The notes below the pieces were generated by a model. That model was not told the DNA's origin. It saw nothing but the letters and a program-made list of their open reading frames with translations, and ran no database searches. A program made the position numbers and the translations under genes. This document shows positions 4,203 through 46,838 of a DNA stretch of 64,000 nucleotides, in pieces (positions within the stretch are counted from its first letter, which is position 1; the number at the start of each line of letters is the position of its first letter). Source of the DNA: Nemertoderma westbladi (lineage: Eukaryota > Animalia > Xenacoelomorpha); the NCBI GenBank assembly GCA_032718475.1, contig JAUCBJ010002220.1, positions 1-64,000 of the forward strand. Direction: 5' to 3'.

Positions 4203-5207
4203 TGTACCGGCGATCGGTCTGCGTGTCGCAGTGCAAGTTACCCGCCCGCAACGGTGACCCTGGCCAGCGTTGCTCGCTTTGAATCCTCCGCTCTCTCCTA
4301 GTCGCTCAACCCCCCGATGCGCCCACCGCCCACTGGCACCTTAGCTCTCCATGATGCTAATAGCTACCGTAGCGGCGCATGCAAATCACAAAGTCTGACA
4401 GTCTCAGAATCCCTTAGGATTATTGCGCAGAAAGAATCACATAGAACCATTAATCAAAGGTAGAAATCATAGTTCAATTGTAATTAGCAGCAATCAAAGG
4501 AATTATTGAGAAACACAAGCAAGTAATCGCACTAGCAAATCATTTCACGAAAATTAATCAAATTAGCAAATTGCAGAAAATATCAAGAAAAAACAGCAAG
4601 ACAGGTGCTAGGGCTAGGTGTCATGTGATGAGTAGAATTGTTGTTGCTCTACCGGCACACCGCCAATTTATAGGTGATCCGGATGGGGTGATGCAATAGG
4701 GTGACTCAATCGCTTTCCTATTGGCTCTCCAGTCCGTGCTAGCACTAGACCAACCTGGAAGCAGCTAGTCCAATAAGGAGGCCGGATTGTAGCCCTATTT
4801 GCTTCCCTTCCTCGAATTATTACCATATATGGTAATGGTTCACGTCTCTGGCTGCTGAATGGCCAGGACAGCGTCCCTATATGCTAGCCCTACTAAAGCT
4901 AATATCAGCAAGCACTGAATCCAGGGTCCGAATAAACTTACCCTGGAACTATCTACATATAACCTAATACAAAATTACGTAGGTAGGGCTACATACTATA
5001 CAAAATGGATGGTTTCAAATATATGGGCGTTTTGATTTCCCTACCTAAATACCACTGCGTTATTATGCCTTATCTAAAATATCATGCTGCACAACGGACT
5101 AATATTACGTACAGTATAACGAACTAATATTGCATACTGCATAACGGACTAATATTGCATACTGCATGATGACTAATATTATGGATACAGCGCCATATAC
5201 CGTAACA
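4203..5207 (-). repeat. Putative 5' LTR of element A (~1.0 kb; inner end uncertain, 4203 or 4195)
   Basis: Imperfect terminal inverted repeat TGTTACGG...CCGGTACA; TATA and CCAAT motifs; short ggactaatatt repeats at 5085-5180. The partner LTR is outside the window. Confidence 0.6.
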
Positions 5208-11200: not shown

Positions 11201-14200
11201 GGGGAAAGACGAAGCAAATAACAGCTGATTACTTCTATAAATGTAAGTGTTACCTGTTCTTTTGACTTTCATTTAAGATTCGCTATCTCATAGAGTGGGT
11301 TAGAAGTTATAAATATGAAAATCGTTGTGGTTTTTGAAAAAAATCAAAGGATATTTTGATTAATTATTGCTGAAAAACACCAAGGATTTTAACATGGCTT
11401 TAATACTTCATTATGTTCATGAAATAGCTGAGATATTGGAGGTGAATTATTGCATTACATAATAACTTTAACTGCAGCCACATTAGCAATACGATGAAAC
11501 TATAATAAATATTCTAGAACACAACAATATTAACAGGGAGATAGGCTACTTATCTCTCCACTCTGAGAGCCTCAAAAAGGGCGTGTTCCGACGCTATCAA
11601 AATTCATCCATCTCCTGGGGATAGACGAAGCAAAGAACAGCTGATTACTTCTATAAATGAAAGTGTTACCTGTTCTTATGACTTTCGTTTAAGATTCTCT
11701 ATCTTGTGGAGTGGATTAGAAGTTATAAATATGAAAATCGATGTGGTTTTTGAAAAAAATCAGAGGATATTTTGATAAATTATTGCTGAAAAACCCCAAG
11801 TATTTTGACATGGCTTTAATACTCATTATATTCATGAAATAGCTGAGATATTTGAGGTTAATTATTGCGTTACATATTAACTTTGGCTCCAGCCGCTTTG
11901 GCAATACGATGAAACTATAATAAAAATTCTAGACCACAACAATATTAACAGGGAGATAGGCTACTTATCTCTTCATTCTGAGAGCCTCAAAAAGGGGGTG
12001 TTCCGACGCAATCAAAATTCATCCATCTCCTGGGGAAAGACGAAGCAAATAACAGCTGATTACTTCTATAAAGGAAAGTGTTACCTGTTCTTATGACTTT
12101 CGTTTAAGATTCTCTATCTCGTGGAGTGGATTATAAGTTATAAATATGAAAATCGATGAGGTTTTTGAAAAAAATCAGAGGATATTTTGATAAATTATTG
12201 CTGAAAAACCCCAAGGATTTTGACATGGCTTTAATACTCATTATATTCATGAAAAAACTGAGATATTTGAAGTGAATTATTGCATTACATAATAACTTTA
12301 ACTCTAGCCACATTAGCAATACGATGAAACTATAATAAATATTCTAGTCCACAACAATATTAACAGGGAGATAGGCTACTTATCTCTCCACTCTGAGAGC
12401 CTCAAAAAGGGCGTGTTCCGACGCTATCAAAATTCATCCATCTCCTGGGGATAGACGAAGCAAAGAACAGCTGATTACTTCTATAAATGAAAGTGTTACC
12501 TGTTCTTTTGACTTTCGTTTAAGATTCTCTATCTTGTGGAGTGGATTAGAAGTTATAAATATGAAAATCGATGTGGTTTTTGAAAAAAATCAGAGGATAT
12601 TTTGATAAATTATTGCTGAAAAACCCCAAGGATTTTGACATGGCTTTAATACTCATTATATTCATGAAATAGCTGAGATATTTGAGGTGAATTATTGCGT
12701 TACATATTAACTTTGGCTCCAGCCGCTTTGGCAATACGATGAAACTATAATAAAAATTCTAGACCACAACAATATTAACAGGGAGATAGGCTACTTATCT
12801 CTTCATTCTGAGAGCCTCAAAAAGGGGGTGTTCCGACGCAATCAAAATTCATCCATCTCCTGGGGAAAGACGAAGCAAATAACAGCTGATTACTTCTATA
12901 AAGGAAAGTGTTACCTGTTCTTTTGACTTTCGTTTAAGATTCTCTATCTCGTGGAGTGGGTTAGAAGTCATGAATATGAAAATCGATGTCGGTTTTTGAA
13001 AAAAATCAGAGGATATTTTGATAAATTATTGCTGAAAAACCCCAAGGATTTTGACATGGCTTTAATACTCATTATATTCATGAAAAAACTGAGATATTTG
13101 AAGTGAATTATTGCATTACATAATAACTTTAACTCTAGCCACATTAGCAATACGATGAAACTATAATAAAAATTCTAGTCCACAACAATATTAACATGGA
13201 GATAGGCTACTTATCTCTTCATTCTGAGAACCCCAAGGAATTTGACATGGCTTTAATACTTCATTATGTTCATGAAAAAACTGAGATATTTGAGGTGAAT
13301 TATTGCATTACATAATAACTTTAACTCCAGCCACTTTAGCAATACGATGAAACTATAATAAATATTCTAGAACACAACAATATTAACAGGGAGATAGGCT
13401 ACTTATCTCTTCACTCTGAGAGCCTCAAAAACGGTGTGTTCCTACGCAATCAAATTTCATCCATCTCCAGGGGAAAGACGAAGCAAAGAACAGCTGATTA
13501 CTTCTATAAATGTAAGTGTTACCTGTTCTTTTGACTTTCATTTAAGATTCGCTATCTCATGGAGTGGGTTAGAAGTTATAAATATGAAAATCGACGTGGT
13601 TTTTGAAAAAAATCAAAGGATATTTTGATTAATTATTGCTGAAAAACACCAAGGATTTTGACATGGCTTTAATACTTCATTATGTTCATGAAATAGCTGA
13701 GATACTTGAGGTGAATTGTTGCATTATATATTAACTTCAGCTCCAGTCTCTTTGGCAATACGATGAAACTATAATAAATATTCTAGAACACAACAATATT
13801 AACAGGGAGATAGGCTACTCATCTCTTCACTCTGACAGCCTCAAAAAGGGGGTGTTCCGACGCAATCAAAATTAATCCATCTCCAGGGGAAAGACGAAGC
13901 AAAGAACAGCTGATTACTTCTATAAATGTAAGTGTTACCTGTTCTTTTGACTTTCATTTAAGATTCGCTATCTCATTGAGTGGGTTAGAAGTTATAAATA
14001 TAAAAATCGATGTGGTTTTTGAAAAAAATCGAAGGATATTTTGATTAATTATTGCTGAAAAACACCAAGGATTTTAACATGGCTTTAATACTTCATTATG
14101 TTCATGAAAAAACTGAGATATTTGAGGTGAATTATTGCATTACATAATAACTTTAACTGCAGCCACATTAGCAATACGATGAAACTATAATAAATATTCT

Positions 14201-17200
14201 AGAACACAACAATATTAACAGGGTGATAGGCTACTTATCTCTCCACTCTGAGAGCCTCAAAAAGGGCGTGTTCCGACGCTATCAAAATTCATCCATCTCC
14301 TGGGGAAAGACGAAGCAAAGAACAGCTGATTACTTCTATAAATGAAAGTGTTACCTGCTCCTTTGACTTTCATTTAAGATTCTTTATCTTTTGGAGTGGG
14401 TTAGAAGTCATGAATATGAAAAACGATGTCGTTTTTTGTAAAAAATCTGAGGATATTTTGATAAATTATTGCTGAAAAAACCCAAGGATTTTGACATGGC
14501 TTTAATACTTCATTATGTTCATGAAAAAACTGAGATATTTGAGGTAAATTATTGCATTACATAATAACTTTAACTCCAGCCACTTTAGCAATACGATGAA
14601 ACTATACTAAATATTCTAGAACACAACAATATTAACATGGAGATAGGCTATTTATCTCTCCACTCAGACAGCCACAGATAGGGAGGGGTGTTTTGACACA
14701 ATCAAAATTCAACCATCTCCAGGGGAAAGACGAAGCAAATAACAGCTGATTACTTCTATAAATGTAAGTGTTACCTGTTCTTTTGACTTTCATTTAAGAT
14801 TCGCTATCTCATAGAGTGGGTTAGAAGTTATAAATATGAAAATCGTTGTGGTTTTTGAAAAAAATCAAAGGATATTTTGATTAATTATTGCTGAAAAACA
14901 CCAAGGATTTTAACATGGCTTTAATACTTCATTATGTTCATGAAATAGCTGAGATATTGGAGGTGAATTATTGCATTACATAATAACTTTAACTGCAGCC
15001 ACATTAGCAATACGATGAAACTATAATAAATATTCTAGAACACAACAATATTAACAGGGAGATAGGCTACTTATCTCTCCACTCTGAGAGCCTCAAAAAG
15101 GGCGTGTTCCGACGCTATCAAAATTCATCCATCTCCTGGGGAAAGACGAAGCAAAGAACAGCTGATTACTTCTATAAATGAAAGTGTTACCTGTTCTTAT
15201 GACTTTCGTTTAAGATTCTCTATCTTGTGGAGTGGATTAGAAGTTATAAATATGAAAATCGATGTGGTTTTTGAAAAAAATCAGAGGATATTTTGATAAA
15301 TTATTGCTGAAAAACCCCAAGTATTTTGACATGGCTTTAATACTCATTATATTCATGAAATAGCTGAGATATTTGAGGTTAATTATTGCGTTACATATTA
15401 ACTTTGGCTCCAGCCGCTTTGGCAATACGATGAAACTATAATAAAAATTCTAGACCACAACAATATTAACAGGGAGATAGGCTACTTATCTCTTCATTCT
15501 GAGAGCCTCAAAAAGGGGGTGTTCCGACGCAATCAAAATTCATCCATCTCCTGGGGAAAGACGAAGCAAATAACAGCTGATTACTTCTATAAAGGAAAGT
15601 GTTACCTGTTCTTATGACTTTCGTTTAAGATTCTCTATGGGGCCGTCCAAGTATGACGTCTGCACTTTTCCTCAAAATTTTGACCCCCTCCCTCCCCTAA
15701 ATCAGATGTCATCAGATAGACGTTGACACCCCCCCCCCCCCCCCCCCCACCCTAAATCAGATTAAAAAAAAATTTGTAATAAACTATTATCAGCAGGATA
15801 AAGGTATTATATTGCATTGGAGGGGGGGTGCACGGGGGCTGGCTGTTGTTACATAGCTTATCTATAGGAAGGTATAGAGTTGTAGTAGGATAGCCTATCG
15901 TTTACATACTTCTACCTGATGCGACAGCAGTTTATGAATGATAATAAACAAACAAGCTAATAATAGGCCTAAATGAACCAATCTGCCAATACTGCAGTCT
16001 TTAACAATCATTAGCTTAGGATTAATGTTTCATTTTCAGGCGAACCCCAGTACCTCAGTACCACAGTAGCACACGTCCTAATCACTGAAACATGGTGACT
16101 GGTAACTGAAACAGTAGGTCGTGCTACGGGCCTTCGGGGGCTTCGAACAATTAAAATAGGCAAGCTATTTACTCTTCTGCTAAATCTCTTCTGGCGCCTA
16201 TAAATGAACATGCTGACGTCAGATTTTGGCTGACCCCCTCCCCTCCCCTCATCAGCACGTCATCAGATTTTCCCAACCCCCCTCCCCCCCCCTAAAGTGC
16301 TGACGTCATACTTGGACGGCCCCTATCTCGTGGAGTGGATTATAAGTTATAAATATGAAAATCAATGAGGTTTTTGAAAAAAATCAGAGGATATCTTGAT
16401 AAATTATTGCTGAAAAACCCCAAGGATTTTGACATGGCTTTAATACTCATTATATTCATGAAAAAACTGAGATATTTGAAGTGAATTATTGCATTACATA
16501 ATAACTTTAACTCTAGCCACATTAGCAATACGATGAAACTATAATAAAAATTCTAGTCCACAACAATATTAACATGGAGATAGGCTACTTATCTCTTCAT
16601 TCTGAGAACCCCAAGGAATTTGACATGGCTTTAATACTTCATTATGTTCATGAAAAAACTGAGATATTTGAGGTGAATTATTGCATTACATAATAACTTT
16701 AACTCCAGCCACTTTAGCAATACGATGAAACTATAATAAATATTCTAGAACACAACAATATTAACAGGGAGATAGGCTAATTATCTCTTCACTCTGAGAG
16801 CCTCAAAAACGGTGTGTTCCTACGCAATCAAATTTCATCCATCTCCAGGGGAAAGACGAAGCAAAGAACAGCTGATTACTTCTATAAATGTAAGTGTTAC
16901 CTGTTCTTTTGACTTTCATTTAAGATTCGCTATCTCATGGAGTGGGTTAGAAGTTATAAATATGAAAATCGACGTGGTTTTTGAAAAAAATCAAAGGATA
17001 TTTTGATTAATTATTGCTGAAAAACACCAAGGATTTTGACATGGCTTTAATACTTCATTATGTTCATGAAATAGCTGAGATACTTGAGGTGAATTGTTGC
17101 ATTATATATTAACTTCAGCTCCAGTCTCTTTGGCAATACGATGAAACTATAATAAATATTCTAGAACACAACAATATTAACAGGGAGATAGGCTACTCAT

Positions 17201-20200
17201 CTCTTCACTCTGACAGCCTCAAAAAGGGGGTGTTCCGACGCAATCAAAATTAATCCATCTCCAGGGGAAAGACGAAGCAAAGAACAGCTGATTACTTCTA
17301 TAAATGTAAGTGTTACCTGTTCTTTTGACTTTCATTTAAGATTCGCTATCTCATTGAGTGGGTTAGAAGTTATAAATATAAAAATCGATGTGGTTTTTGA
17401 AAAAAATCGAAGGATATTTTGATTAATTATTGCTGAAAAGCACCAAGGATTTTAACATGGCTTTAATACTTCATTATGTTCATGAAAAAACTGAGATATT
17501 TGAGGTGAATTATTGCATTACATAATAACTTTAACTGCAGCCACATTAGCAATACGATGAAACTATAATAAATATTCTAGAACACAACAATATTAACAGG
17601 GTGATAGGCTACTTATCTCTCCACTCTGAGAGCCTCAAAAAGGGCGTGTTCCGACGCTATCAAAATTCATCCATCTCCTGGGGAAAGACGAAGCAAAGAA
17701 CAGCTGATTACTTCTATAAATGAAAGTGTTACCTGCTCCTTTGACTTTCATTTAAGATTCTTTATCTTTTGGAGTGGGTTAGAAGTCATGAATATGAAAA
17801 ACGATGTCGTTTTTTGTAAAAAATCTGAGGATATTTTGATAAATTATTGCTGAAAAAACCCAAGGATTTTGACATGGCTTTAATACTTCATTATGTTCAT
17901 GAAAAAACTGAGATATTTGAGGTAAATTATTGCATTACATAATAACTTTAACTCCAGCCACTTTAGCAATACGATGAAACTATACTAAATATTCTAGAAC
18001 ACAACAATATTAACATGGAGATAGGCTATTTATCTCTCCACTCAGACAGCCACAGATAGGGAGGGGTGTTTTGACACAATCAAAATTCAACCACCTCCAG
18101 GGGAAAGACGAAGCAAATAACAGCTGATTACTTCTATAAATGTAAGTGTTACCTGTTCTTTTGACTTTCATTTAAGATTCGCTATCTCATAGAGTGGGTT
18201 AGAAGTTATAAATATGAAAATCGTTGTGGTTTTTGAAAAAAATCAAAGGATATTTTGATTAATTATTGCTGAAAAACACCAAGGATTTTAACAAGGCTTT
18301 AATACTTCATTATGTTCATGAAATAGCTGAGATATTGGAGGTGAATTATTGCATTACATAATAACTTTAACTGCAGCCACATTAGCAATACGATGAGACT
18401 ATAATAAATATTCTAGAACACAACAATATTAACAGGGAGATAGGCTACTTATCTCTCCACTCTGAGAGCCTCAAAAAGGGCGTGTTCCGACGCTATCAAA
18501 ATTCATCCATCTCCTGGGGATAGACGAAGCAAAGAACAGCTGATTACTTCTATAAATGAAAGTGTTACCTGTTCTTATGACTTTCGTTTAAGATTCTCTA
18601 TCTTGTGGAGTGGATTAGAAGTTATAAATATGAAAATCGATGTGGTTTTTGAAAAAAATCAGAGGATATTTTGATAAATTATTGCTGAAAAACCCCAAGT
18701 ATTTTGACATGGCTTTAATACTCATTATATTCATGAAATAGCTGAGATATTTGAGGTTAATTATTGCGTTACATATTAACTTTGGCTCCAGCCGCTTTGG
18801 CAATACGATGAAACTATAATAAAAATTCTAGAACACAACAATATTAACAGGGAGATAGGCTACTTATCTCTTCATTCTGAGAGCCTCAAAAAGGGGGTGT
18901 TCCGACGCAATCAAAATTCATCCATCTCCTGGGGAAAGACGAAGCAAATAACAGCTGATTACTTCTATAAAGGAAAGTGTTACCTGTTCTTATGACTTTC
19001 GTTTAAGATTCTCTATCTCGTGGAGTGGATTATAAGTTATAAATATGAAAATCGATGAGGTTTTTGAAAAAAATCAGAGGATATTTTGATAAATTATTGC
19101 TGAAAAACCCCAAGGATTTTGACATGGCTTTAATACTCATTATATTCATGAAAAAACTGAGATATTTGAAGTGAATTATTGCATTACATAATAACTTTAA
19201 CTCTAGCCACATTAGCAATACGATGAAACTATAATAAAAATTCTAGTCCACAACAATATTAACATGGAGATAGGCTACTTATCTCTTCATTCTGAGAACC
19301 CCAAGGAATTTGACATGGCTTTAATACTTCATTATGTTCATGAAAAAACTGAGATATTTGAGGTGAATTATTGCATTACATAATAACTTTAACTCCAGCC
19401 ACTTTAGCAATACGATGAAACTATAATAAATATTCTAGAACACAACAATATTAACAGGGAGATAGGCTACTTATCTCTTCACTCTGAGAGCCTCAAAAAC
19501 GGTGTGTTCCTACGCAATCAAATTTCATCCATCTCCAGGGGAAAGACGAAGCAAAGAACAGCTGATTACTTCTATAAATGTAAGTGTTACCTGTTCTTTT
19601 GACTTTCATTTAAGATTCGCTATCTCATGGAGTGGGTTAGAAGTTATAAATATGAAAATCGACGTGGTTTTTGAAAAAAATCAAAGGATATTTTGATTAA
19701 TTATTGCTGAAAAACACCAAGGATTTTGACATGGCTTTAATACTTCATTATGTTCATGAAATAGCTGAGATACTTGAGGTGAATTGTTGCATTATATATT
19801 AACTTCAGCTCCAGTCTCTTTGGCAATACGATGAAACTATAATAAATATTCTAGAACACAACAATATTAACAGGGAGATAGGCTACTCATCTCTTCACTC
19901 TGACAGCCTCAAAAAGGGGGTGTTCCGACGCAATCAAAATTAATCCATCTCCAGGGGAAAGACGAAGCAAAGAACAGCTGATTACTTCTATAAATGTAAG
20001 TGTTACCTGTTCTTTTGACTTTCATTTAAGATTCGCTATCTCATTGAGTGGGTTAGAAGTTATAAATATAAAAATCGATGTGGTTTTTGAAAAAAATCGA
20101 AGGATATTTTGATTAATTATTGCTGAAAAACACCAAGGATTTTAACATGGCTTTAATACTTCATTATGTTCATGAAAAAACTGAGATATTTGAGGTGAAT

Positions 20201-23200
20201 TATTGCATTACATAATAACTTTAACTGCAGCCACATTAGCAATACGATGAAACTATAATAAATATTCTAGAACACAACAATATTAACAGGGTGATAGGCT
20301 ACTTATCTCTCCACTCTGAGAGCCTCAAAAATGGCGTGTTCCGACGCTATCAAAATTCATCCATCTCCTGGGGAAAGACGAAGCAAAGAACAGCTGATTA
20401 CTTCTATAAATGAAAGTGTTACCTGCTCCTTTGACTTTCATTTAAGATTCTTTATCTTTTGGAGTGGGTTAGAAGTCATGAATATGAAAAACGATGTCGT
20501 TTTTTGTAAAAAATCTGAGGATATTTTGATAAATTATTGCTGAAAAAACCCAAGGATTTTGACATGGCTTTAATACTTCATTATGTTCATGAAAAAACTG
20601 AGATATTTGAGGTAAATTATTGCATTACATAATAACTTTAACTCCAGCCACTTTAGCAATACGATGAAACTATACTAAATATTCTAGAACACAACAATAT
20701 TAACATGGAGATAGGCTATTTATCTCTCCACTCAGACAGCCACAGATAGGGAGGGGTGTTTTGACGCAATCAAAATTCATCCATCTCCTGGGGAAAGACG
20801 AAGCAAATAACAGCTGATTACTTCTATAAAGGAAAGTGTTACCTGTTCTTATGACTTTCATTTAAGATTCTCTATCTCGTGGAGTGGATTATAAGTTATA
20901 AATATGAAAATCGATGAGGTTTTTGAAAAAAATCAGAGGATATTTTGATAAATTATTGCTGAAAAACCCCAAGGATTTTGACATGGCTTTAATACTCATT
21001 ATATTCATGAAAAAACTGAGATATTTGAAGTGAATTATTGCATTACATAATAACTTTAACTCTAGCCACATTAGCAATACGATGAAACTATAATAAAAAT
21101 TCTAGTCCACAACAATAATAACATGGAGATAGGCTACTTATCTCTTCATTCTGAGAACCCCAAGGAATTTGACATGGCTTTAATACTTCATTATGTTCAT
21201 GAAAAAACTGAGATATTTGAGGTGAATTATTGCATTACATAATAACTTTAACTCCAGCCACTTTAGCAATACGATGAAACTATAATAAATATTCTAGAAC
21301 ACAACAATATTAACAGGGAGATAGGCTACTTATCTCTTCACTCTGAGAGCCTCAAAAACGGTGTGTTCCTACGCAATCAAATTTCATCCATCTCCAGGGG
21401 AAAGACGAAGCAAAGAACAGCTGATTACTTCTATAAATGTAAGTGTTACCTGTTCTTTTGACTTTCATTTAAGATTCGCTATCTCATGGAGTGGGTTAGA
21501 AGTTATAAATATGAAAATCGACGTGGTTTTTGAAAAAAATCAAAGGATATTTTGATTAATTATTGCTGAAAAACACCAAGGATTTTGACATGGCTTTAAT
21601 ACTTCATTATGTTCATGAAATAGCTGAGATACTTGAGGTGAATTGTTGCATTATATATTAACTTCAGCTCCAGTCTCTTTGGCAATACGATGAAACTATA
21701 ATAAATATTCTAGAACACAACAATATTAACAGGGAGATAGGCTACTCATCTCTTCACTCTGACAGCCTCAAAAAGGGGGTGTTCCGACGCAATCAAAATT
21801 AATCCATCTCCAGGGGAAAGACGAAGCAAAGAACAGCTGATTACTTCTATAAATGTAAGTGTTACCTGTTCTTTTGACTTTCATTTAAGATTCGCTATCT
21901 CATTGAGTGGGTTAGAAGTTATAAATATAAAAATCGATGTGGTTTTTGAAAAAAATCGAAGGATATTTTGATTAATTATTGCTGAAAAACACCAAGGATT
22001 TTAACATGGCTTTAATACTTCATTATGTTCATGAAAAAACTGAGATATTTGAGGTGAATTATTGCATTACATAATAACTTTAACTGCAGCCACATTAGCA
22101 ATACGATGAAACTATAATAAATATTCTAGAACACAACAATATTAACAGGGTGATAGGCTACTTATCTCTCCACTCTGAGAGCCTCAAAAATGGCGTGTTC
22201 CGACGCTATCAAAATTCATCCATCTCCTGGGGAAAGACGAAGCAAAGAACAGCTGATTACTTCTATAAATGAAAGTGTTACCTGCTCCTTTGACTTTCAT
22301 TTAAGATTCTTTATCTTTTGGAGTGGGTTAGAAGTCATGAATATGAAAAACGATGTCGTTTTTTGTAAAAAATCTGAGGATATTTTGATAAATTATTGCT
22401 GAAAAAACCCAAGGATTTTGACATGGCTTTAATACTTCATTATGTTCATGAAAAAACTGAGATATTTGAGGTAAATTATTGCATTACATAATAACTTTAA
22501 CTCCAGCCACTTTAGCAATACGATGAAACTATACTAAATATTCTAGAACACAACAATATTAACATGGAGATAGGCTATTTATCTCTCCACTCAGACAGCC
22601 ACAGATAGGGAGGGGTGTTTTGACACAATCAAAATTCAACCATCTCCAGGGGAAAGACGAAGCAAATAACAGCTGATTACTTCTATAAATGTAAGTGTTA
22701 CCTGTTCTTTTGACTTTCATTTAAGATTCGCTATCTCATAGAGTGGGTTAGAAGTTATAAATATGAAAATCGTTGTGGTTTTTGAAAAAAATCAAAGGAT
22801 ATTTTGATTAATTATTGCTGAAAAACACCAAGGATTTTAACATGGCTTTAATACTTCATTATGTTCATGAAATAGCTGAGATATTGGAGGTGAATTATTG
22901 CATTACATAATAACTTTAACTGCAGCCACATTAGCAATACGATGACACTATAATAAATATTCTAGAACACAACAATATTAACAGGGAGATAGGCTACTTA
23001 TCTCTCCACTCTGAGAGCCTCAAAAAGGGCGTGTTCCGACGCTATCAAAATTCATCCATCTCCTGGGGAAAGACGAAGCAAAGAACAGCTGATTACTTCT
23101 ATAAATGAAAGTGTTACCTGTTCTTATGACTTTCGTTTAAGATTCTCTATCTTGTGGAGTGGATTAGAAGTTATAAATATGAAAATCGATGTGGTTTTTG

Positions 23201-23236
23201 AAAAAAATCAGAGGATATTTTGATAAATTATTGCTG
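5208..23236. repeat. ~415-bp satellite array, left block, with a ~2690-bp higher-order repeat (6 monomers plus one ~200-bp deleted monomer)
   Basis: The monomer recurs every ~415 bp. The diagnostic deletion junction ctgagaa|ccccaagg occurs at ~7012, 9703, 13224, 16602, 19292 and 21151. Confidence 0.97.
15639..16323. mobile_element. PIF/Harbinger-like MITE (685 bp)
   Basis: TIRs GGGGCCGTCCAAGTATGACGTC... and ...GACGTCATACTTGGACGGCCCC; 3-bp TSD TAT; no transposase; interrupts one satellite monomer cleanly. Confidence 0.88.
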
Positions 23237-24497
23237 CAAACATTTTGACGTTAATTTAACGTTAATTTACGTTAATATTCTACCATTCCAACGTTATTTT
23301 TTAACGTGCCCTTACGTTAAATTAACGTATTATTGGCCGGGGTTACTACGTTAAAAATATACATAAATTGTACTCAAATCATACTAATTAACTCATGTCT
23401 GAAAATAACGTTAACTGCCGTATATTATGAACGTTATTTATGAACGTACCATTACGTTAAATTAACGTATTATTGGCCGGGGTTACTACGTTAAATAAAT
23501 ACGTTAAAAAAATACGTCAATAATACGTTAAAAAAATACGTCACTAATACGTTATTTGTTATTCAAAAGCATAAAAAATATCATGTTTAATTGAGATTTA
23601 CTTCATGGACCACAGCGGTAGTTACTTGGTGGACCTGCAAGGGACTGGGGGGGATCTAACACTAACCTACACAGCCTACGCCTACGCCCCTACACCTACT
23701 ACACCTTAGGAGTGGAACCTTCAATGCATTTAGGCAAAATAAATATCGGATTATTTCTGAGAAGAATTATGATGACTTTTGATCAATTGCTAAGAAATTT
23801 GTTTAGATTTATATAAAATACTATCACATACCTATTTGGCCTCTACGTTAGATAAATCATTTGATTAAATTATTTAAATTTATTAGTTATCAAACAATTT
23901 AATTGATAATTTAAAATTAAATTATAGGAAATTAATAACTATTTAGAGTCTGACGTCATTTAACGTTAGACTTGCGTTTTTTGCAGACGCTGGGGGTAGA
24001 ATGAAACCAATTTATTGTTTGTAATAACTACACTGTATATCAAACCTCACCAATAATTTAACGATGGTAACGAATGGTGTTTATTTTATTTAGCCACTCA
24101 CACTGAATAAACGTAGTGCCGTTTTTATATAAATAATTGGCAGTCGAAAATGAACTTATTTAACAAATTTTGCCCGGAATAAAAAATAATTCAAAGCTAA
24201 ATTTACGGTATATCGGTAATATAAATCGGCATAACGTACTGTACTATATACAGTATTAACTAAATAAACTTCAATAAACAAAAATATGAGAAATAAACAA
24301 AACTACAGTATAAAAAAATAATACCAAAATTGAAAGAAATATTCAATATTGCATCGTTATAAATTCAATAATAATGCACATCCACATCACAATAATATAT
24401 TGAAGAACATGTAAACTAATTAATATTGCAGTTACAGTAGTTATATTATCGGAGTACAAAATAATGACCTGCAGTTACAGTAGTTAGTTATATTATG

Positions 24498-25269: not shown

Positions 25270-25780
25270 ATTTCAACCAATGTCAGACGTTTTAAATTAA
25301 CATTAAAAATCGATGTTAAATTTCAACGTTTGTTTAATATTGGGTTTAGTGATTTATGTTCATGATTAAATTTAACCAATGTCTGACGTTTCAAAGTAAC
25401 GTTAAAAATCTATGTTAAAATTCAACGTTTGTTTAACGTTTGGGTTTAGTGATTTTTGTACATGATTAAATTTAACCAATGTCAGACGTTTCAAAATAAC
25501 GTTAAAAATTGATGTTAAAATTCAACGTCTGTTTAACGTTTGTGTTTAGTCATTTTTGTTCATGATTAAATTTAACCAATGTCAGACGTTTCAAAATAAC
25601 GTTAAAAATTGATGTTAAAATTCAACGTCTGTTTAACGTTTGGGTTTAGTAATTTTTTTTCATGATTAAATTTAACCAATGTCAGACGTTTAAAAATAAC
25701 GTTAAAAATTGATGTTAAAATTGAACGTCGGTTTAACGTTTCGGTTTAGTTGATTTTAGACATGTAGTTTTTAAACGATT
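25270..25780. repeat. ~102-bp tandem repeat (about 5 copies) rich in AACGTT
   Basis: aaccaatgtc(a/t)gacgttt recurs at ~25275, 25375, 25474, 25574 and 25675. Confidence 0.9.
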
Positions 25781-25830
25781 ATAAGACATTAGAAAACGTT
25801 TGTTCTAAGTTATTTTTATAACATTATTTG

Positions 25831-27749
25831 TATAGAATTATATTCCCTAAATGCCGTGGATTTTCAAAATTTTATTTTATTCGAATTAACTTTGTAAAGA
25901 TTGCTTTGAGTTCTCATTAGTATTGGTTCTATCTATTATGCATCTATCGATCAAGTGGTTCAGTAGCTCAGTTGGTAGAGCGTTGGAAATTATATGTGTA
26001 GTAGGTATCGAGTTCGAATCCTAGTAAGTGCGAATTATTTTTTGTGCAGAATTTCAACTCATTTAAATTAACCGCTACAAATTAATTGCATTTGTCTGTA
26101 CCAATAAGGCTGTAGTTATTTGATTGTAACCAATGTCGTGCAAGTTATATATTAGCTGGACCAATAAGCTATCTTTAAAACCTCGTTAGAACCCATAGAA
26201 CAATCGAGAATTTTCTCGATTGATTGCAGCACAAATTTAGTATATAAAGGTGCGATTCGTTCATTAGTTATCTCTCAATCTACTCAAGCCATCATTCACT
26301 TTCTGTCTTATTTCAGATTACATTGTTTATTGTATAATAGTTATTATATCTTTTGTAATAAAAGTCAGAAATACTAGTCACATCTCAGCCCTTTTCTATC
26401 TGTTTTACTATGGTTTCACTACGGTGAACAAACTCAGGGACAGGATGGCCGGCTAGAGATCGGGCCGCAGCAATGAACGGGAACATCACGGGAATGTAGA
26501 CGAGAGACAACCCGCAATACCATCTTAGAGTTATTCGCCCATCGCCTGAAAGGTTAGACAGCGTTCGATCCTTGCTACCTAAGTGTAAGACCAAAAGATC
26601 AAAGGTAGACGTAGTGACACGCTGCAAGCCTAAAATTACATCATAGGGACTGTACTGTCTTGATTCAGGGAAAACCGCAGTAGACCTTCATATTCCTACG
26701 GGGGGAGAGGGAGAGAGAGCAGATACTAGTACGCAGATAGGACGTAGGCACACCGGTACAAGGCATACACATTGGTTAGGGTGCAGCAAACTGTACGCTT
26801 AACTCTTGCTAAGTACAGGTGTGTGTGCGACTATTTGCCGTACAACGGTGTCCGTTACATCAGAACTTGTAGGCTAGGGGGGTTGCTGTGTTTTCACCTG
26901 AATTGGGATTGTACCGTTCAGGCGGTAGGGCAGTTTACGCTAGGCGCAAATAAATTGAGGCTATCAGGGATACTAACATCTACCGTGTCCCCGCCAACGC
27001 CCTAATAGGAAGTTACCCGGACTACCTGGGTGACTAAAATTCTAGATAGGAGCCAGGATAGCTATTAGTACCCGTACGCCTACAGTAGTAAACTAACACA
27101 TCTCTTCTTAGTATCAGGGACCTGGTACCTAAAATTGCCGAATTCTGGGCGTAGTATTAACCTTATGCCTGAATTTGAGTCCTGGAAATACGCAAGAGGG
27201 GAAGGAACCTTATCATTCGTGAGTATTGGACCTACAAGTTATAAAATTAGAATATTCGTAAAATGCACACCGTACCCAGTAATTATATATGTGAAGGAGC
27301 AAAACTGCTTTGACCGTTCAGAATTAACACATGCGCGTTAAAATTTATTTACACCTCGAAATATATAAAATTAACTTTCGTCCTTACTGCACTTTGCTCG
27401 CTAGTTAGACATCTCCAAATCTGCTCTATACCTAGCTAGCGTCCTTTTGCCCAACCATATAAATCACACCGCGGCAAAGTATACGAGCCTCTTAGTCCGT
27501 CAGTGAGTCAGCCTGATTTTAGGATTCGCTGCGCGGGATTTTGTTTTATCGAAGTTTGTCTGCTCGTAGACTGTTTTCTGCCTCACCGGTTAAAAGAGAT
27601 CGATACTGCAATATATTCGCTTACTTGGGGTTTACTGTTTTGGTGAGAAGGTCGGATTTATGATTTGATTTACAAACTTTACAGTAGGATATTGCAGGTA
27701 TTGTTACCGTCTCTTCCGATAGTAGGAATAGGCGTATCTCTCCAATTTA
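25831..27749 (+). repeat. 5' LTR of element B
   Basis: Matches 40471-42389 with only one difference seen by eye (27379 C vs 42019 T). CCAAT boxes at 26101-26165, TATATAAA at ~26241, AATAAA at 26357 and 26949. Confidence 0.95.
25957..26043 (+). ncRNA. tRNA-derived Pol III cassette (A box, B box, T6 terminator) inside the 5' LTR; not a functional tRNA
   Basis: GGTTCAG-TAGCTCAGTTGGTAGAGCG (D arm, A box) ... GAGTTCGAATCC (B box) ... TTTTTT. Acceptor and anticodon stems do not pair well. Confidence 0.75.
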
Positions 27750-27760
27750 GTAGGAATATG
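27750..27760 (+). promoter_or_regulatory. Putative non-tRNA primer-binding site GTAGGAATATG
   Basis: Abuts the 5' LTR end, lacks TGG, and is the exact reverse complement of CATATTCCTAC at 26689-26699. Confidence 0.5.
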
Positions 27761-28562
27761 TTTTACTGAACTACGGTTCGGTAGGACTAAAGTTATTTGA
27801 AAATTTTGTATTTTGAGGTAAAAATTTATATTTGATTAGCTAAGTGCTAATTTTTTGAAATAAAATTTGATTTGAACCGCGTGTAAAATATTTTTGGAAT
27901 TGAATACCGGTGTTTAAAAGGGTTTAAATACCATATTGTACCGGTACAAATTTTTTCGTAAAAGTAAAACCTAACTCTTTTGTTTTTTCAGGATTCAGAA
28001 CTCATTTCTAGACTGTAACGGGAGCAAGACCGTGTTTAGCAAGTTTGGGAGATAGATAACTCAACAACTTTGGTTGAGAAAATCGCGTTTCGTCCGCAAC
28101 GTTAAAAACGGAAAGGTTCACGTTCGGTTTGTATCTGGGAATCTGTTTTTCTGGAGAATTATTGGAGTGGGTGAGTTCGAAAAGTTGCATAAATAAGTTA
28201 GGCATTACCGTATTAGTTAAAAATTATTGTGGGTTCCACTGTCTCAAGTATTTATGCATTCCGTACGATTTCTTTGTTCATTGCTGAATTAGTCCGTATT
28301 ATTGTATTTAATTTACCTTTTGATAACGCATATCGTTATCCGATTTATTTGTTGTAAAATTGGCCGCTAGGCTAATTTTATTATATACTTATTCCGTGAC
28401 ATTTATTTGCTGTAAAATTGGCCGTTTTAGGCTAATTTTATCCATCTGCTATAAAATCAGCCGGTAGGCTAATTTTATAAGACTGTAATTAGTACCGTTT
28501 AGATATAAATACGGTAAACTCGATACTTTGACACTCACTTCACTTGACTTACAACTACCGAA

Positions 28563-31500
28563 ATGAGTGACAAACAAGACTATACGAAGAATACACAAAC
28601 CGACTATGACTCATGTGACGCGGATAAGTCAGCAGCGGAAGAACAACAGGGGAAGACTCGCGAGCCTACCGAACCTACACCGTGTGCGTCACCAGTACAT
28701 CCAACGGGAGTACCGGATGCCGTAGTACGAGGCGACGGCAGGACCGAGGACTTTCTAACTGTTCCGCAACCTAGATATAGGGAAACGGAAATGGTAAGTT
28801 CAGCAGGAAGCACAGAAAGTGTGGTTAGAAGCGTCGGAGGATACATGGCGCATATAACCAGGAGCATTGGAGAAGGCCAACGCATATTAGACGGGTTGAC
28901 CGCTCCGATGTCTCGATTCGAGTTCTACACCCTCCAGGTTAGAGTACAGAGTAAAGTATATAAGTCCGTAGATAATCTAGTTGGCCTACAAGATCTAGCT
29001 AGACAGAGACAGGACATGGATACTCAACTTAGAATCCTTGAGAAACTAATGATCACTAGAGAGAAACTGATTCAGTTTAAGTCGACGATTAGACAGATAC
29101 AACAGGAACAAGCGGACCAGTTGTTAGGTGAGTCAGTTTCGGACGAATTATTACAGCCCGAGGAAGAACAGGAACTGTACCGACTGGATGGACAATTGAA
29201 ACACCTGACGGATCACTTGCGCATGTGCGGCGAAGACGTCGGGGATTGGGAAACCGTGCCGGAGGCTACGAGGGAAACTTCACTCGCACAAATCGAATCG
29301 GCACCGGGAATACTAAATCAATCGCTGGTAAGTATTCGTAGCGAAATCTGCGAGGGAAGTATGGTCACGTCAGAAGTTGCTCGACAACAGCAAGAATTCT
29401 GCCGACAACGACGAGAAATGGAGGAACAAGCTCAACTTCTAGTGATGCAGGCAGCAGTAGAGGAAGAGAAGCTACGCGTTGCGAATATAGCGAGAATCTC
29501 TCATCTACAGGAACAAGCTGAATTAGAAGCAGCCGAAGTAGAAAGGTTAGAGCGAGACATTGCCCGACAAGCGGCAGCGGCAGCGGCCGAGTCAGAGCGA
29601 CAAGCGGCAGCGGCAGCGGCAGCGGCCGAGTCAGAGCGACAAGCGGCAGCGGCAGCGGCGGAATTAGAACGAGACAGGTTAGTTTCGGAAGCACGGGCCG
29701 AAATGAAAACACGGCAAATAAAGGCTCAATCCGCTATACGACAAGCAGAGTTTGAGGCGCAACAACGACAAACGGAACAACGAGAGAAGACAGCTAAACT
29801 TCATTTCGAACTCGAGAAGAAGGCGAGAGAATTAGCGAACGCCGAGGAAGATCTGGATCAAAAGGCCCGCGATCGATCGATGAGATCTCGAGACGGACAT
29901 GACTTGGACCAGATAGAGGTAAGAAATCGCCAAATTCAGGAACGAAAGAAGGAAGGAAGCGTAGGAGCACCCGGACGGGAACGACAATTAGTAAAGGACT
30001 TGTGTCAACGATTCCCACAGGTAACTCATATGTTTGCACCGGTTACGACTAAGGAACCTGTTTCGATTGCGGGTAGTAGTAACATTTCTCCTATCCATGG
30101 TGCGACGGAACACAGGTTTGTTATTCCGGACAAGTTTACACCGCCAAGAGCAACGTCGTCGCCTATTCCGAAAGTCAAGGTAAGTAACCCACCGATTACA
30201 GATCGTAGTAGTTTATTAGTCGGACCTGCACTACTGACGACAAAACAGGTGAGTCCACCTTTGACACCTAAACCCGTTACGCACTACGATTACCCAATGA
30301 CATTTCGGCCTACAAGGCCTTTGGATTCAAACGCGGTCGTCCGACCACCAGTTCAGTTTACGTCGCAATCTACGACTTCGAGGAAGACTTGTGAGCCTAC
30401 CGAACAACGGAGAACAGTGGAGACGCGACCGTTCAACCAGTTTACATCGCAATCTACGACTTCGAGGAAGACTTGTGAGCCTACCGAACAACGGAGATCA
30501 GTGGACGATGTTCCGAAACGAGCCGTTAGAATTCGAACGACGCAACGGACGCGAGCACGTCGACCACCATATCCAGATGATAGTAGTACTTCAAGCGAAT
30601 CGGATTACCCGAAACGCGAGGTATTTAGAACAGGGGCGGCCGACGAATATAAACGCGAGCGTTCAGACAACTCCTTTGCAGACAATCCTCCACAGAATAC
30701 ACCAACACAGAAGGCGTTACAACCAACGAACGCAATTAGTACACAACAGTTCGCCGACATTCTGCGACCAGTTGTCAATAAGTTGGCTCAGATCGAGGAA
30801 CGTCTGGAGGAAGTTCAAACCGACAGTTCGAGAAATTCCGAATTCGAACACAATAGACACCCGAAGGGACCACAAAGACCGGTACCTTCAAACCCCACAT
30901 CGTATCAGGGAAAAGCGCCAAGAAGGGAGAACATCAACCAGGTTACCAACCAAGGACGCGAAACTCTGAACGTTGCCGAGGAGATAGCGAAATTCGCAGC
31001 CAGACAGGGATTGCCGGTACAACAACCACCGAAGTTCTCCGGTAGCTCAAAACACTGGCATACCTTCGTAGACTATATTGAATCCCAGATCGCCGTGTGC
31101 GCCTTTACATCACGAGAGAAGTTCAATTACTTGCTCCAAACGTTGTCAGGAGAACCTAAACGTTTGGCGGAGACTTTCGTCGGTGTACCAGACGCTTTCG
31201 AACTAGCGTACGATCGTTTGACTTCGATATACGGAGGTACAGTGAGTATGGCCAGGTCAGTAATAGAAGAACTCTGTAAGGGAGGGGCTATCACTAAACC
31301 CGTCGACTTACTAAAACTGGCTGACGAGATTAAGAACGCTATCACTACCTTAAGATCAATTGGACAACTTGATTACGGGAATACACCTACAGTCCTATTA
31401 AAGATAATAGGACGACTCCACCATCGACTTCGTCGGGAGTGGAGGAAGGTCGAATATCAGCGAGAGGAGCGAGGAGGATTCCTAAAATTAGAAGATGTGT

Positions 31501-37205: not shown

Positions 37206-38052
37206 TTAGGAGTTTACAAATAGATTTCCACGTACCTGTACACCGTAGTAAGGACAGCGGTAGAATTCCATTGTCTTTATATGTGAACATTGAGGGTAGT
37301 ACCCTTATGTGTCACATAGGAGCGGGATTTGTAGGTATAAGAAATGGAATTCTACTTGGAACTCACAATATTGAGACATTTTCGAAATTTTAGACAATCC
37401 ATTTGGATTTGAAAAATTTTTAAAAATTTCTCCAGTGAATAGATTTCAGGGTACAGTCGGGTGGAACTTAAAATTAGAGAAACAAGTAGATGGAAGACTT
37501 GCGAGCCTTTCTTAAAATTTTAATTAAATTTTACACGGTCTTGATTCAATAAGTTACGTCAAATAGACTCCCCTATATTTATTACTAATTCTTGATTGCT
37601 TATTTTCTGATAATAGTTTGGGATCAAAAAATGAGTATTTTAGACTCACGGCCAGTTTAGCCCAAATTCGTTTTTACTTCGGCAAAAATTTTAGATAAGA
37701 AGCAGCGTGTCATTAAAGAAACCTTAGATCTTAGGCTATGGGTAGGAGGTTAGAGCGTTGTCGAAGCCCAAAGGGCAGACGAAACTCTCACGTCTCCTCA
37801 CAACTAACCACAAACTCTGTTGTATTCCCTCTAGTAGTAATGATTATGTAACTACACCCTAATTATGGAGAAAGGGATATAAGGAGAGCCGAGATGGGGA
37901 TATGATATCCAAGAGGAAGCGGCAGCTTCATTCGAACGATTTGGAGCAAAAGATTACACTATATTCGGTATAAAGGAATTATCAGAAAGTACAGCGAAGC
38001 TCGCAAAGACAGCAATGCCTTTACTCGAGCAGGATTTAGTATATTTCGAGAC

Positions 38053-38931
38053 GTGTATCTTCGCTGTGCGGGATCTCTTATCGAAAGACCATCTATGTTT
38101 ACATTGTTACCCTATGAAGGAGAACGTATCGTGGAAATTACGGATGAATCACGGCAGACGCGCGCGCCTATCGGTCACCTTGGTGATGAATTCGAAGTAA
38201 CTACTACGATCGCCGACGATCCTTTAGAGGAACTTCTTGAGATAGAAAGGAACCTCCCGAAGAAATCTCAGACGGAGATTCGACAACTTGAAGCAACAGA
38301 TGCTATAGTTTGTATACAACCTTCAGAAACCTACCAACCCATAGACCCAGATGATTACGATTATAGTATGGGAGGAAGCGCTCGACCGATTGGAGATCTT
38401 ATATACGAACGAGTGTGGTACCCTGCTAATACGATGTGTAGTAAATGTGGCGTCGCTGGACATCATATGGCAAAGTGCAGTGGAAAGCACATTACTACGA
38501 CTCAGCTAATCTGTGGATGGTGTGGGGATCAAGGGTCTCATACCTTTTATACTTGCTGGAGATTTATGGCTCAGTGTACTTACTGCAATATAAAGGGACA
38601 TCGAGCATCTGAATGCCAACTGAGAGATATACCTTATGAACACGAATCTGTAAAACTCGTGAGGAAGTTATTTGATGAGTGGGAAGATTTAGCCGACGAA
38701 CATGTATCGGCACAGAGAAGACGGTTTCCGATGAGAGCGCATCTCGGATTTTGGGCGGTAAATCCCCAGACGATGATGTCGGAAGGATACATCTCCGCTA
38801 TGCCCCAATATGACGAACTTATCGAGGTTGTTGATATTTTGCCCCACGACAGCGGATTCCGAGTGGTGCGCGAGTATCTGTTACAGATTCACCCAGATAA
38901 CAAAACACGTGGAATTTTCAGAAAGTCGTAA
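38053..38931 (+). CDS. Accessory ORF with three CCHC-type zinc knuckles (true start uncertain; frame open from 37906)
   Basis: CSKCGVAGHHMAKC, CGWCGDQGSHTFYTC and CTYCNIKGHRASEC; lies between pol and the 3' LTR. Confidence 0.7.
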   Translation: MYLRCAGSLIERPSMFTLLPYEGERIVEITDESRQTRAPIGHLGDEFEVTTTIADDPLEELLEIERNLPKKSQTEIRQLEATDAIVCIQPSETYQPIDPDDYDYSMGGSARPIGDLIYERVWYPANTMCSKCGVAGHHMAKCSGKHITTTQLICGWCGDQGSHTFYTCWRFMAQCTYCNIKGHRASECQLRDIPYEHESVKLVRKLFDEWEDLADEHVSAQRRRFPMRAHLGFWAVNPQTMMSEGYISAMPQYDELIEVVDILPHDSGFRVVREYLLQIHPDNKTRGIFRKS

Positions 38932-39164
38932 ATCGTATCACGTATGGTGAATTTGATCGTTTCCGAACCGAAAAGCGGAATAAATGAGCTTGGTTAACCG
39001 TCGCATGGGCGTACCGAGCCGCGTTTTACCATAAACGTATACGAGCGAGCGTATTCGAGGAAGAAGAGGTCCTAGAGGCGACGAATATATCAGCCACTCC
39101 GGTTGCGCCGTCTGCACGTCACCCTCGGGAGGACGGGCAGGGTAGGATCATACGGGTCCAGAAA

Positions 39165-39566
39165 GTGGGCCAACAATTGAAGAAAATTATTAATGTGGAA
39201 GAACGCAAGGGAGTTGAGCCGACTATTCGAGTTACTCGGGATACGGTATCACTTCCAAGAGAACCGGTAGGAGGATCGGGACATACACCAGCTGATCAAC
39301 AGGGGGCGCAAGCTACTCTTGGGTCTGCGTCGTCCACTCCTCGCGCGTTCCCAGACGTTCTACCAACTGTAGCGACAACTGATCGGTCACGAGGAATTGG
39401 TCGAGGTTTTGGGATGCCAAATAGACGAATTTGCGAGGAAATAGTCGCACCGTCTCTCAACGTCCCAAGTAAACCAGTGACTCGCCCCACCAGTCCCATA
39501 TCGCGAGCAAAGTCACCTGTGCGCAGTTTTCGAGGACGCGGCAGGGCTCGATCTACTAAGCGATAA
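39165..39566 (+). CDS. Second accessory ORF or exon, Pro/Ser/Arg-rich with RG-rich C-terminus (frame open from 38988)
   Basis: GC-rich, coding-like composition; ends RSFRGRGRARSTKR just before an AT-rich 3' UTR. Confidence 0.45.
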   Translation: MGQQLKKIINVEERKGVEPTIRVTRDTVSLPREPVGGSGHTPADQQGAQATLGSASSTPRAFPDVLPTVATTDRSRGIGRGFGMPNRRICEEIVAPSLNVPSKPVTRPTSPISRAKSPVRSFRGRGRARSTKR

Positions 39567-40240: not shown

Positions 40241-40470
40241 TTATATTGGTGAATTTAATTTAGATTTATATTGTACTTACTTAGTAAAGCCTTAAATACG
40301 TAAAGTTTGAATTTGTAATTATTTTGTATCGAATCATTACGTAGAAAGGAAGTATCGTTTGAAATTTAATTGTAAATATGTAAGTACGCCCTAAGTATTC
40401 TATAGTTTGATTGATTATTGGTGAAAACCGTATATTTTATGCACGATAATATCCTGTTTTCATGGAGCGG

Positions 40471-42389
40471 TATAGAATTATATTCCCTAAATGCCGTGGA
40501 TTTTCAAAATTTTATTTTATTCGAATTAACTTTGTAAAGATTGCTTTGAGTTCTCATTAGTATTGGTTCTATCTATTATGCATCTATCGATCAAGTGGTT
40601 CAGTAGCTCAGTTGGTAGAGCGTTGGAAATTATATGTGTAGTAGGTATCGAGTTCGAATCCTAGTAAGTGCGAATTATTTTTTGTGCAGAATTTCAACTC
40701 ATTTAAATTAACCGCTACAAATTAATTGCATTTGTCTGTACCAATAAGGCTGTAGTTATTTGATTGTAACCAATGTCGTGCAAGTTATATATTAGCTGGA
40801 CCAATAAGCTATCTTTAAAACCTCGTTAGAACCCATAGAACAATCGAGAATTTTCTCGATTGATTGCAGCACAAATTTAGTATATAAAGGTGCGATTCGT
40901 TCATTAGTTATCTCTCAATCTACTCAAGCCATCATTCACTTTCTGTCTTATTTCAGATTACATTGTTTATTGTATAATAGTTATTATATCTTTTGTAATA
41001 AAAGTCAGAAATACTAGTCACATCTCAGCCCTTTTCTATCTGTTTTACTATGGTTTCACTACGGTGAACAAACTCAGGGACAGGATGGCCGGCTAGAGAT
41101 CGGGCCGCAGCAATGAACGGGAACATCACGGGAATGTAGACGAGAGACAACCCGCAATACCATCTTAGAGTTATTCGCCCATCGCCTGAAAGGTTAGACA
41201 GCGTTCGATCCTTGCTACCTAAGTGTAAGACCAAAAGATCAAAGGTAGACGTAGTGACACGCTGCAAGCCTAAAATTACATCATAGGGACTGTACTGTCT
41301 TGATTCAGGGAAAACCGCAGTAGACCTTCATATTCCTACGGGGGGAGAGGGAGAGAGAGCAGATACTAGTACGCAGATAGGACGTAGGCACACCGGTACA
41401 AGGCATACACATTGGTTAGGGTGCAGCAAACTGTACGCTTAACTCTTGCTAAGTACAGGTGTGTGTGCGACTATTTGCCGTACAACGGTGTCCGTTACAT
41501 CAGAACTTGTAGGCTAGGGGGGTTGCTGTGTTTTCACCTGAATTGGGATTGTACCGTTCAGGCGGTAGGGCAGTTTACGCTAGGCGCAAATAAATTGAGG
41601 CTATCAGGGATACTAACATCTACCGTGTCCCCGCCAACGCCCTAATAGGAAGTTACCCGGACTACCTGGGTGACTAAAATTCTAGATAGGAGCCAGGATA
41701 GCTATTAGTACCCGTACGCCTACAGTAGTAAACTAACACATCTCTTCTTAGTATCAGGGACCTGGTACCTAAAATTGCCGAATTCTGGGCGTAGTATTAA
41801 CCTTATGCCTGAATTTGAGTCCTGGAAATACGCAAGAGGGGAAGGAACCTTATCATTCGTGAGTATTGGACCTACAAGTTATAAAATTAGAATATTCGTA
41901 AAATGCACACCGTACCCAGTAATTATATATGTGAAGGAGCAAAACTGCTTTGACCGTTCAGAATTAACACATGCGCGTTAAAATTTATTTACACCTCGAA
42001 ATATATAAAATTAACTTTTGTCCTTACTGCACTTTGCTCGCTAGTTAGACATCTCCAAATCTGCTCTATACCTAGCTAGCGTCCTTTTGCCCAACCATAT
42101 AAATCACACCGCGGCAAAGTATACGAGCCTCTTAGTCCGTCAGTGAGTCAGCCTGATTTTAGGATTCGCTGCGCGGGATTTTGTTTTATCGAAGTTTGTC
42201 TGCTCGTAGACTGTTTTCTGCCTCACCGGTTAAAAGAGATCGATACTGCAATATATTCGCTTACTTGGGGTTTACTGTTTTGGTGAGAAGGTCGGATTTA
42301 TGATTTGATTTACAAACTTTACAGTAGGATATTGCAGGTATTGTTACCGTCTCTTCCGATAGTAGGAATAGGCGTATCTCTCCAATTTA
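40471..42389 (+). repeat. 3' LTR of element B
   Basis: Direct repeat of 25831-27749, preceded by the short purine-rich GGAGCGG. Confidence 0.95.
40597..40683 (+). ncRNA. tRNA-derived Pol III cassette, 3' LTR copy
   Basis: Identical to 25957-26043. Confidence 0.75.
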
Positions 42390-42459
42390 ATTTGTCTAAC
42401 CTAAAACAGACTAAAGTCTAACGTTAGATTAGCGTAATTAACGTAAAATGTTTGCAGGG

Positions 42460-46834: not shown

Positions 46835-46838
46835 TTAA

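Follow-up and report, generated by a model that had tools for sequence, protein, structure and literature searches.

The retrotransposon and its surroundings

The window (the whole 64-kb stretch of DNA analysed) contains a BEL/Pao retrotransposon of 16,559 bp with both long terminal repeats (LTRs) of 1,919 bp; all features of this element given below are on the plus strand. Self-alignment pairs 25830-27749 with 40470-42389 with a single mismatch, at 27379. The G at 25830, common to both copies, is part of the target-site duplication ATTTG (25826-25830 on the left, the same five letters at 42390-42394 on the right), and thus the 5' LTR is set at 25831-27749 and the 3' LTR at 40471-42389. This agrees with the contigs of one sequencing run (X4, see below), which switch to an unrelated flank just before 25831. 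The LTRs both begin and end with TA (TA..TA) instead of having TG..CA termini, and the duplication is 5 bp long. Ends of the TG..CA type were considered and rejected, as the ATTTA following CA is common to both LTRs and the 3' LTR has no TG.

The internal region contains a single open gag-pol frame with the start codon at 28563 and the end at 37205 (2,885 aa from stop to stop, counted from 28548). It encodes three Cys-His boxes, protease, reverse transcriptase (YVDD), RNase H and integrase in this order, with intact catalytic motifs. DUF1759, Peptidase_A17 and DUF5641 score above the Pfam cut-off, whereas no chromodomain match was found by Pfam in the proteins of the element. Among the 120 of 544 matches listed, the relatives are 37-44% identical and have the same Pfam set, and those that are named come from marine invertebrates and fish. 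The domains above the cut-off and the order of the motifs bear out the initial annotation, which had called this a BEL/Pao element, and by its proteins it is assigned to Belpaoviridae. With one mismatch in 1,919 bp between the LTRs and the motifs of reverse transcriptase, RNase H and integrase in place, the element is both young and intact. It is also high-copy in two runs labelled DNA. A young, intact, high-copy element must possess a working primer.

Pol is followed by two extra open reading frames, both located before the 3' LTR. The first one (37906-38931, 341 aa) encodes zinc-knuckle-like motifs, which are below the Pfam cut-off and have a best Atlas score of 0.86, to be taken as a lead only. 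The second one (38988-39566) has no Pfam match. The 3' LTR is preceded by a short purine-rich tract GGAGCGG (40464-40470), a weak candidate polypurine tract compared to the tract of about 10 nt in the description of BEL/Pao.

The 5' LTR contains a canonical promoter at 26101-26248, with three CCAAT boxes (26101, 26130, 26161) followed by TATAAA (26243), from which transcription would start near 26265-26275. The proximal AATAAA is at 26357-26362, which together with the promoter makes up a set of LTR transcription signals of the ordinary kind. A distal candidate AATAAA occupies 26949-26954. The candidate primer described in the next section lies about 420 nt downstream of this promoter, 330 nt downstream of the proximal AATAAA and upstream of the distal one. 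The initial annotation had mentioned an upstream TATA box as a caveat; the caveat is real and stronger than stated there, given the three CCAAT boxes before the TATAAA and the AATAAA after it.

Further upstream, in U3, the segment 25958-26044 contains tRNA-like A and B boxes with a T-run. It does not have a tRNA fold: no tRNA was found in this segment by ARAGORN or Rfam, and the z-score of its folding is -1.17. It is possibly a Pol III promoter or a boundary element. The Cer7 element of C. elegans may encode its own tRNA primer, which plays no part in the argument below.

Directly after the 3' LTR there is a second, broken BEL/Pao pol (42447-49426), 23-41% identical to the first one depending on the segment. 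It is interrupted by a Mutator-like transposase ORF on the minus strand (44833-46095), and it has no LTR pair in the window. Satellite arrays of approximately 416-bp units with a higher-order period occupy about 5200-24400, 51409-55589, 56633-58631 and 60221-64000, and an inverted-repeat nest was observed at 58961-59905.

The 11-nt match and its predicted folding

The segment CATATTCCTAC (26689-26699, with the 3' LTR copy at 41329-41339) is a candidate self-primer, and GTAGGAATATG (27750-27760), abutting the LTR end, is the candidate primer-binding site (PBS). As had been noted initially, the latter is the exact reverse complement of the former, and the last base at the 3' end of the primer segment faces the first base past the LTR; the match ends at 11 nt. 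The absence of a TGG-type PBS and the Inr-like TCATATT, reported at the same time, are likewise confirmed: the first TGG past the LTR is at 27895, 145 nt away, and TCATATT occupies 26688-26694. The primer segment is contiguous in DNA. The 18-nt PBS for tRNA-Arg or tRNA-Gly known from the description of BEL/Pao is absent after the 5' LTR. In the available text of a survey of plant elements, self-primers are defined by complementarity of at least 10 nt starting 0-5 nt from the LTR (PMC6317226), and the 11-nt match falls within this definition.

In 14 of 20,000 cases, an LTR shuffled by dinucleotides contains the 11-mer, and in 50 of 20,000 if the start is allowed to be 0-3 nt from the LTR end. 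For comparison, at 21 of the 12,710 positions in the interior, the LTR offers a complement of at least 11 nt. The chance is about 1 in 400 to 1 in 1,400, slightly weaker than the earlier estimate of about 1 in 2,000. The 11-nt feature is real and beyond easy chance.

The GTAGGA motifs at 27684, 27722 and 27781 are in the positions reported earlier, but the one at 27781 is the 3' arm of a hairpin with a UNCG loop. Nor is the cluster a set of spare primer-binding sites throughout: the motif at 27722 pairs with 9 nt (-11.0 vs. -14.5), and the others with less.

The LTR-PBS junction pattern has no match in the genome contigs or viral contigs searched. No related loci were found in viral contigs, and metagenome contigs yielded one fragment with 28% identity and no LTR. 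No second LTR pair exists within 42390-64000. Rfam finds no ribozyme, intron or tRNA in 25700-28600, only one chance miRNA match (E-value 0.81), and thus a primer end made by a ribozyme or resembling tRNA is unsupported.

RNA folding was predicted from several starts; folds longer than 1 kb are rough. In all folds to 27800 that begin at nine starts within 26669-26691, the eight 3' bases of the primer pair with the PBS with probability at least 0.97, over a distance of 1,060 nt. This pairing is kept if the first two bases of the primer are removed. The probability of the primer-PBS pairing decreases to 0.29 when the fold starts at 26650, and in the folds starting at 26270 or 26600 a local hairpin with 26866-26882 takes up the primer.

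The base after the PBS begins an 11-bp hairpin with a cUACGg (UNCG) loop (27761-27786; -11.6 kcal/mol, z-score -4.89, 0 of 200 shuffles), which was selected for the shuffle test after it had been seen in a fold, so the test is post hoc. On the other side, the purine tract immediately after the primer (26700-26729) is the predicted partner, with modest support, of the pyrimidine tract at the LTR end (27725-27749). For the 25 nt before the PBS it is the best partner in the LTR (-16.4), as none of 1,800 non-overlapping windows is as good. However, this flanking helix is weak: it is equalled by 364 of 3,000 shuffles of the 30-mer, and 226 of 300 shuffled LTRs contain an equally good window somewhere. 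A third duplex of the Tf1 pretzel type is not predicted; that side folds on itself into the UNCG hairpin.

Pairing is also possible between the U3 segment 25941-25963, located at the 5' side of the tRNA-like box, and the hairpin region 27762-27787 (7 and 12 bp, -26.0 kcal/mol). This pairing was found post hoc and is equalled in 5 of 300 shuffled LTRs. In genomic RNA it would mean a contact between the 5' and 3' ends through the 3' LTR.

A likely intron and sequence variants

Nine public sequencing runs are listed, six of them contain a part of the window, and the contigs of four (X1, X3, X4, X5) were compared. One X4 contig (depth 249.8) contains a joint between 26552 and 27992, which indicates a likely GT-AG intron of 1,439 nt (26553-27991). 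The donor boundary is 26552/26553; the acceptor, at 27991/27992, is preceded by a branch-like CTAAC and a pyrimidine tract. The joint is absent from the X1, X3 and X5 contigs. It removes the primer, the PBS and the UNCG hairpin together and leaves the gag-pol start codon at 28563 intact. The upstream exon of the spliced form begins at least 26 nt before 26550, that is, before the primer, and thus the spliced RNA does not start at 26689. A second X4 contig departs at the same donor and continues with sequence absent from the stretch compared, so the LTR donor may be spliced to other exons as well.

The X4 run is labelled "DNA?". Substitutions A>G account for 131 of its 196 variant places, the corresponding counts being 31 of 139 (X1) and 38 of 149 (X3). 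Given this excess and the joint, X4 is probably RNA. Its contigs span 26699/26700 and the distal AATAAA, and hence the sequence past the primer is present in X4, although contigs reveal neither ends nor strand. Relative to X3, the depth of X4 drops past about 26400 and once more past about 26600, as would be expected of a poly(A) end around 26380 and of the donor at 26552; as contig depth shows neither ends nor levels, these drops are not counted as evidence. The gap in X4 at 27289-27430 has no proof value.

Two X4 contigs over 26530-27578 are heavily divergent (49 differences in 348 nt and 90 in 701 nt). Of the 160 variant places in X4 alone, 122 are A>G, a pattern like that of A-to-I hyper-editing acting on sense RNA of the long 3' part of the LTR.

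Over the primer, one X4 contig predominates (depth 774.6 of 820.3). Its substitution T26691C breaks one of the 11 pairs and leaves the eight pairs at the 3' end of the primer. No change at the partner position 27758 occurs among the variants listed for X4 (40 of 160, down to approximately half share). Thus the substitution is uncompensated, or a change at 27758 is rarer, or this position is uncovered. The same contig carries A26674C, which accounts for 17% of the summed depth in X1 and 21% in X3, and since it recurs in these runs, the contig with T26691C is likely a real subfamily. In a low-depth variant from X1 and X3, 27659-27748 is replaced by 26 other letters. It rejoins the sequence at 27749 and then matches at least 25 letters across the PBS, which speaks in favour of constraint on the PBS.

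Priming routes and known systems

Self-priming, with the cis and trans routes taken together, is the best reading of this element, and we hold it to be somewhat better than an even bet. In this respect the initial proposal of tRNA-independent self-priming stands, given the exact placement of the match, the absence of TGG, the predicted duplex and the abutting hairpin. In contrast, the layout of Tf1 that had been assumed, with the primer formed by the first 11 nt of the mRNA, finds no support here, as the promoter is far upstream and the exon at the splice joint precedes the primer. The test proposed to refute self-priming, the lack of an RNA start near 26689, was also the wrong one: the primer may carry a 5' extension, and what priming in cis needs is an RNA 3' end past 26700.

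For cis priming taken by itself, on unspliced RNA and with the spliced form serving as message only, we see slightly less than even chances. The unspliced RNA would fold 26689-26699 onto the PBS at 27750-27760 and, by analogy with Tf1, would be cut just after 26699 by the RNase H of the element. The cut would leave all upstream sequence on the primer, and thus the strong-stop DNA could copy only from 27749 back to 26700. By the logic of strand transfer, the jump would then need an RNA with its 3' end in the 3' LTR, beyond both the proximal AATAAA and 26700; an RNA ending only at this AATAAA could not complete the transfer in cis. The 5' start would be free, as a longer primer would still function, and self-priming is therefore compatible with the TATA box. 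As a best guess, the copied RNA probably begins at a second start near 26670-26690, apart from the TATA promoter. The spliced RNA, having lost the primer and the PBS, could be translated but not copied. Against the cis route are the substitution T26691C, the upstream position of the promoter and AATAAA, the existence of at least one RNA (the spliced form) that does not begin at the primer, the folds from upstream starts, the weakness of the flanking helix, the third duplex missing from the predictions, and the fact that the joint is known from one contig of a run labelled "DNA?".

A more speculative extension, which we regard as doubtful, is that a single intron contains all parts of the priming machinery (the self-primer, the PBS and the UNCG hairpin), so that splicing is a transposition switch. 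The spliced RNA driven by the TATA promoter would encode the complete Gag-Pol and yet would never be copied, whereas the unspliced RNA, perhaps made from a second LTR start and a second poly(A) site, would cut out its own primer. If so, splicing may control the ability of the element to copy itself.

The pairing could also occur in trans. Genomic RNA would start at the TATA promoter and end near the proximal AATAAA, and the primer would be a 5' fragment cut after 26699 from a second co-packaged copy or from a short LTR transcript, annealing to the PBS of an uncut copy. The sequence evidence for this, the 11-nt match and the hairpin, is identical to that for the cis route, while neither a second start nor read-through is required and the layout of the promoter, the poly(A) signal and the upstream exon fits. 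Strand transfer between co-packaged RNAs has been described for Ty-type elements, in the part of the literature available. However, in the folds with upstream starts the primer is buried in a local hairpin, nothing accounts for the predicted cis duplex and its flanking helix, and the self-priming literature examined, available in part, contains no described case; overall we consider the trans route quite unlikely. A pure coincidence in a long LTR, with something else acting as the primer, seems very unlikely. Matches of 11 nt do occur at interior positions, very many elements have been scanned, and an abundant variant lacks one of the 11 pairs, but the site was fixed beforehand by the LTR end, the match is rare in shuffled LTRs even with the slack of 0-3 nt, the hairpin adjoins it at one end, the best flanking partner at the other, and there is no tRNA site.

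Priming by a host RNA, either a tRNA half or another small RNA, has a low but appreciable probability. The LTR match would then be a structural or regulatory helix, closing a long 5' domain or covering the PBS until packaging. Such a helix would tolerate the uncompensated T26691C, and the contigs rich in A>G over 26530-27578 suggest that double-stranded RNA forms there; on the other hand, a structural helix need not stop exactly at the LTR boundary. Half-tRNA priming without TGG was reported for about 2% of plant elements, but, in the available text of that survey, only for Ty1/copia lineages (PMC6317226). The segment 26689-26699 resembles the anticodon loop TT-CCT-AC of tRNA-Arg, and arginine is an amino acid named for BEL/Pao (PMC8742986). 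The tRNA-like segment in U3 would not provide the primer easily, as it has no PBS complement at its end and its pairing is weaker (-18.3 vs. -30.6). Moreover, tRNAs with U36-A37 normally have A38 rather than C, which counts against a host tRNA.

The closest analogy for self-priming is the Tf1 group. Its members, Tf1 and Tf2 of S. pombe, Tj1, Tosmo1-3 and other Tf1/sushi elements (Ty3/gypsy chromoviruses), have, as far as the available texts describe them, an 11-nt PBS that abuts the LTR and is complementary to an LTR segment, a helix between the sequence after the primer and that before the PBS, and no tRNA site, and the element studied here shares this arrangement, the helix being a predicted one. 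RNase H cleaves the Tf1 RNA behind its base 11 (PMC7175516, available part), and two further helices, formed by PBS-adjacent sequence with LTR sequence after the primer, are required (bioRxiv 10.1101/2022.12.06.519325, available part). Here a local UNCG hairpin is predicted in place of the third duplex. Unlike Tf1/sushi, the element encodes BEL/Pao proteins without a chromodomain match; its LTR ends with TA and not CA; its candidate primer is 1,060 nt from the PBS and far downstream of the canonical promoter, where Tf1 has its primer at the mRNA 5' end; and the primer and the PBS are inside a likely intron. Thus the element resembles Tf1 in the central duplex and is not a member of Tf1/sushi. 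In Tf2, one RNA made from alternative start sites can be reverse transcribed and another, without the self-primer, cannot (PMC5341516, available part); there the latter form arises by a start downstream of the LTR, whereas here it would arise by splicing.

By its proteins the element is similar to Belpaoviridae, with a single gag-pol frame, triple Cys-His boxes, protease, reverse transcriptase (YVDD), RNase H, integrase, Peptidase_A17, DUF1759 and DUF5641 (PMC8742986). The ICTV description of the family gives an 18-nt PBS for tRNA-Arg or tRNA-Gly, LTRs of 0.2-1.2 kb and genomes of 4.2-10 kb, and treats host tRNA priming as a family trait while calling the replication poorly understood (PMC8742986). 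The element differs from it by the LTR of 1.9 kb, the length of 16.6 kb, the lack of such a PBS and the extra ORF with zinc-knuckle-like motifs after pol.

A published report of self-priming in BEL/Pao was not found in a search covering mainly freely available literature, with some sources available in part. The main text of the BEL/Pao survey PMC3118150 has no mention of primer, PBS or tRNA, and the examined text of PMC6317226 has no BEL/Pao self-primer; the supplements of both may list PBS types. Self-priming is established in Tf1; for Tcn1, the copia lineage TAR and the Tf1/sushi elements, whose hosts range from fungi to vertebrates, it has been proposed (PMC6317226; bioRxiv 10.1101/2022.12.06.519325; both in their available parts), so that self-priming in an animal is not in itself new, and the new point is the BEL/Pao superfamily. 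Prediction of self-priming in more than one superfamily has a precedent in the plant survey: Tcn1 (gypsy) and TAR, Houba and Osr-1 (copia) were predicted by the same sequence definition as applies here, in other superfamilies and another kingdom, and BEL/Pao is not among the self-primers in its available text (PMC6317226).

Elements of this kind would be missed by programs demanding TG..CA ends and a tRNA site. As the primer is far from the main promoter, one mapped RNA 3' end would separate cis from trans priming, unlike the situation in Tf1. If the reading is true, self-priming would have arisen independently once more, in an intact, high-copy BEL/Pao element, besides its origins in Tf1/sushi, Tcn1 and TAR.
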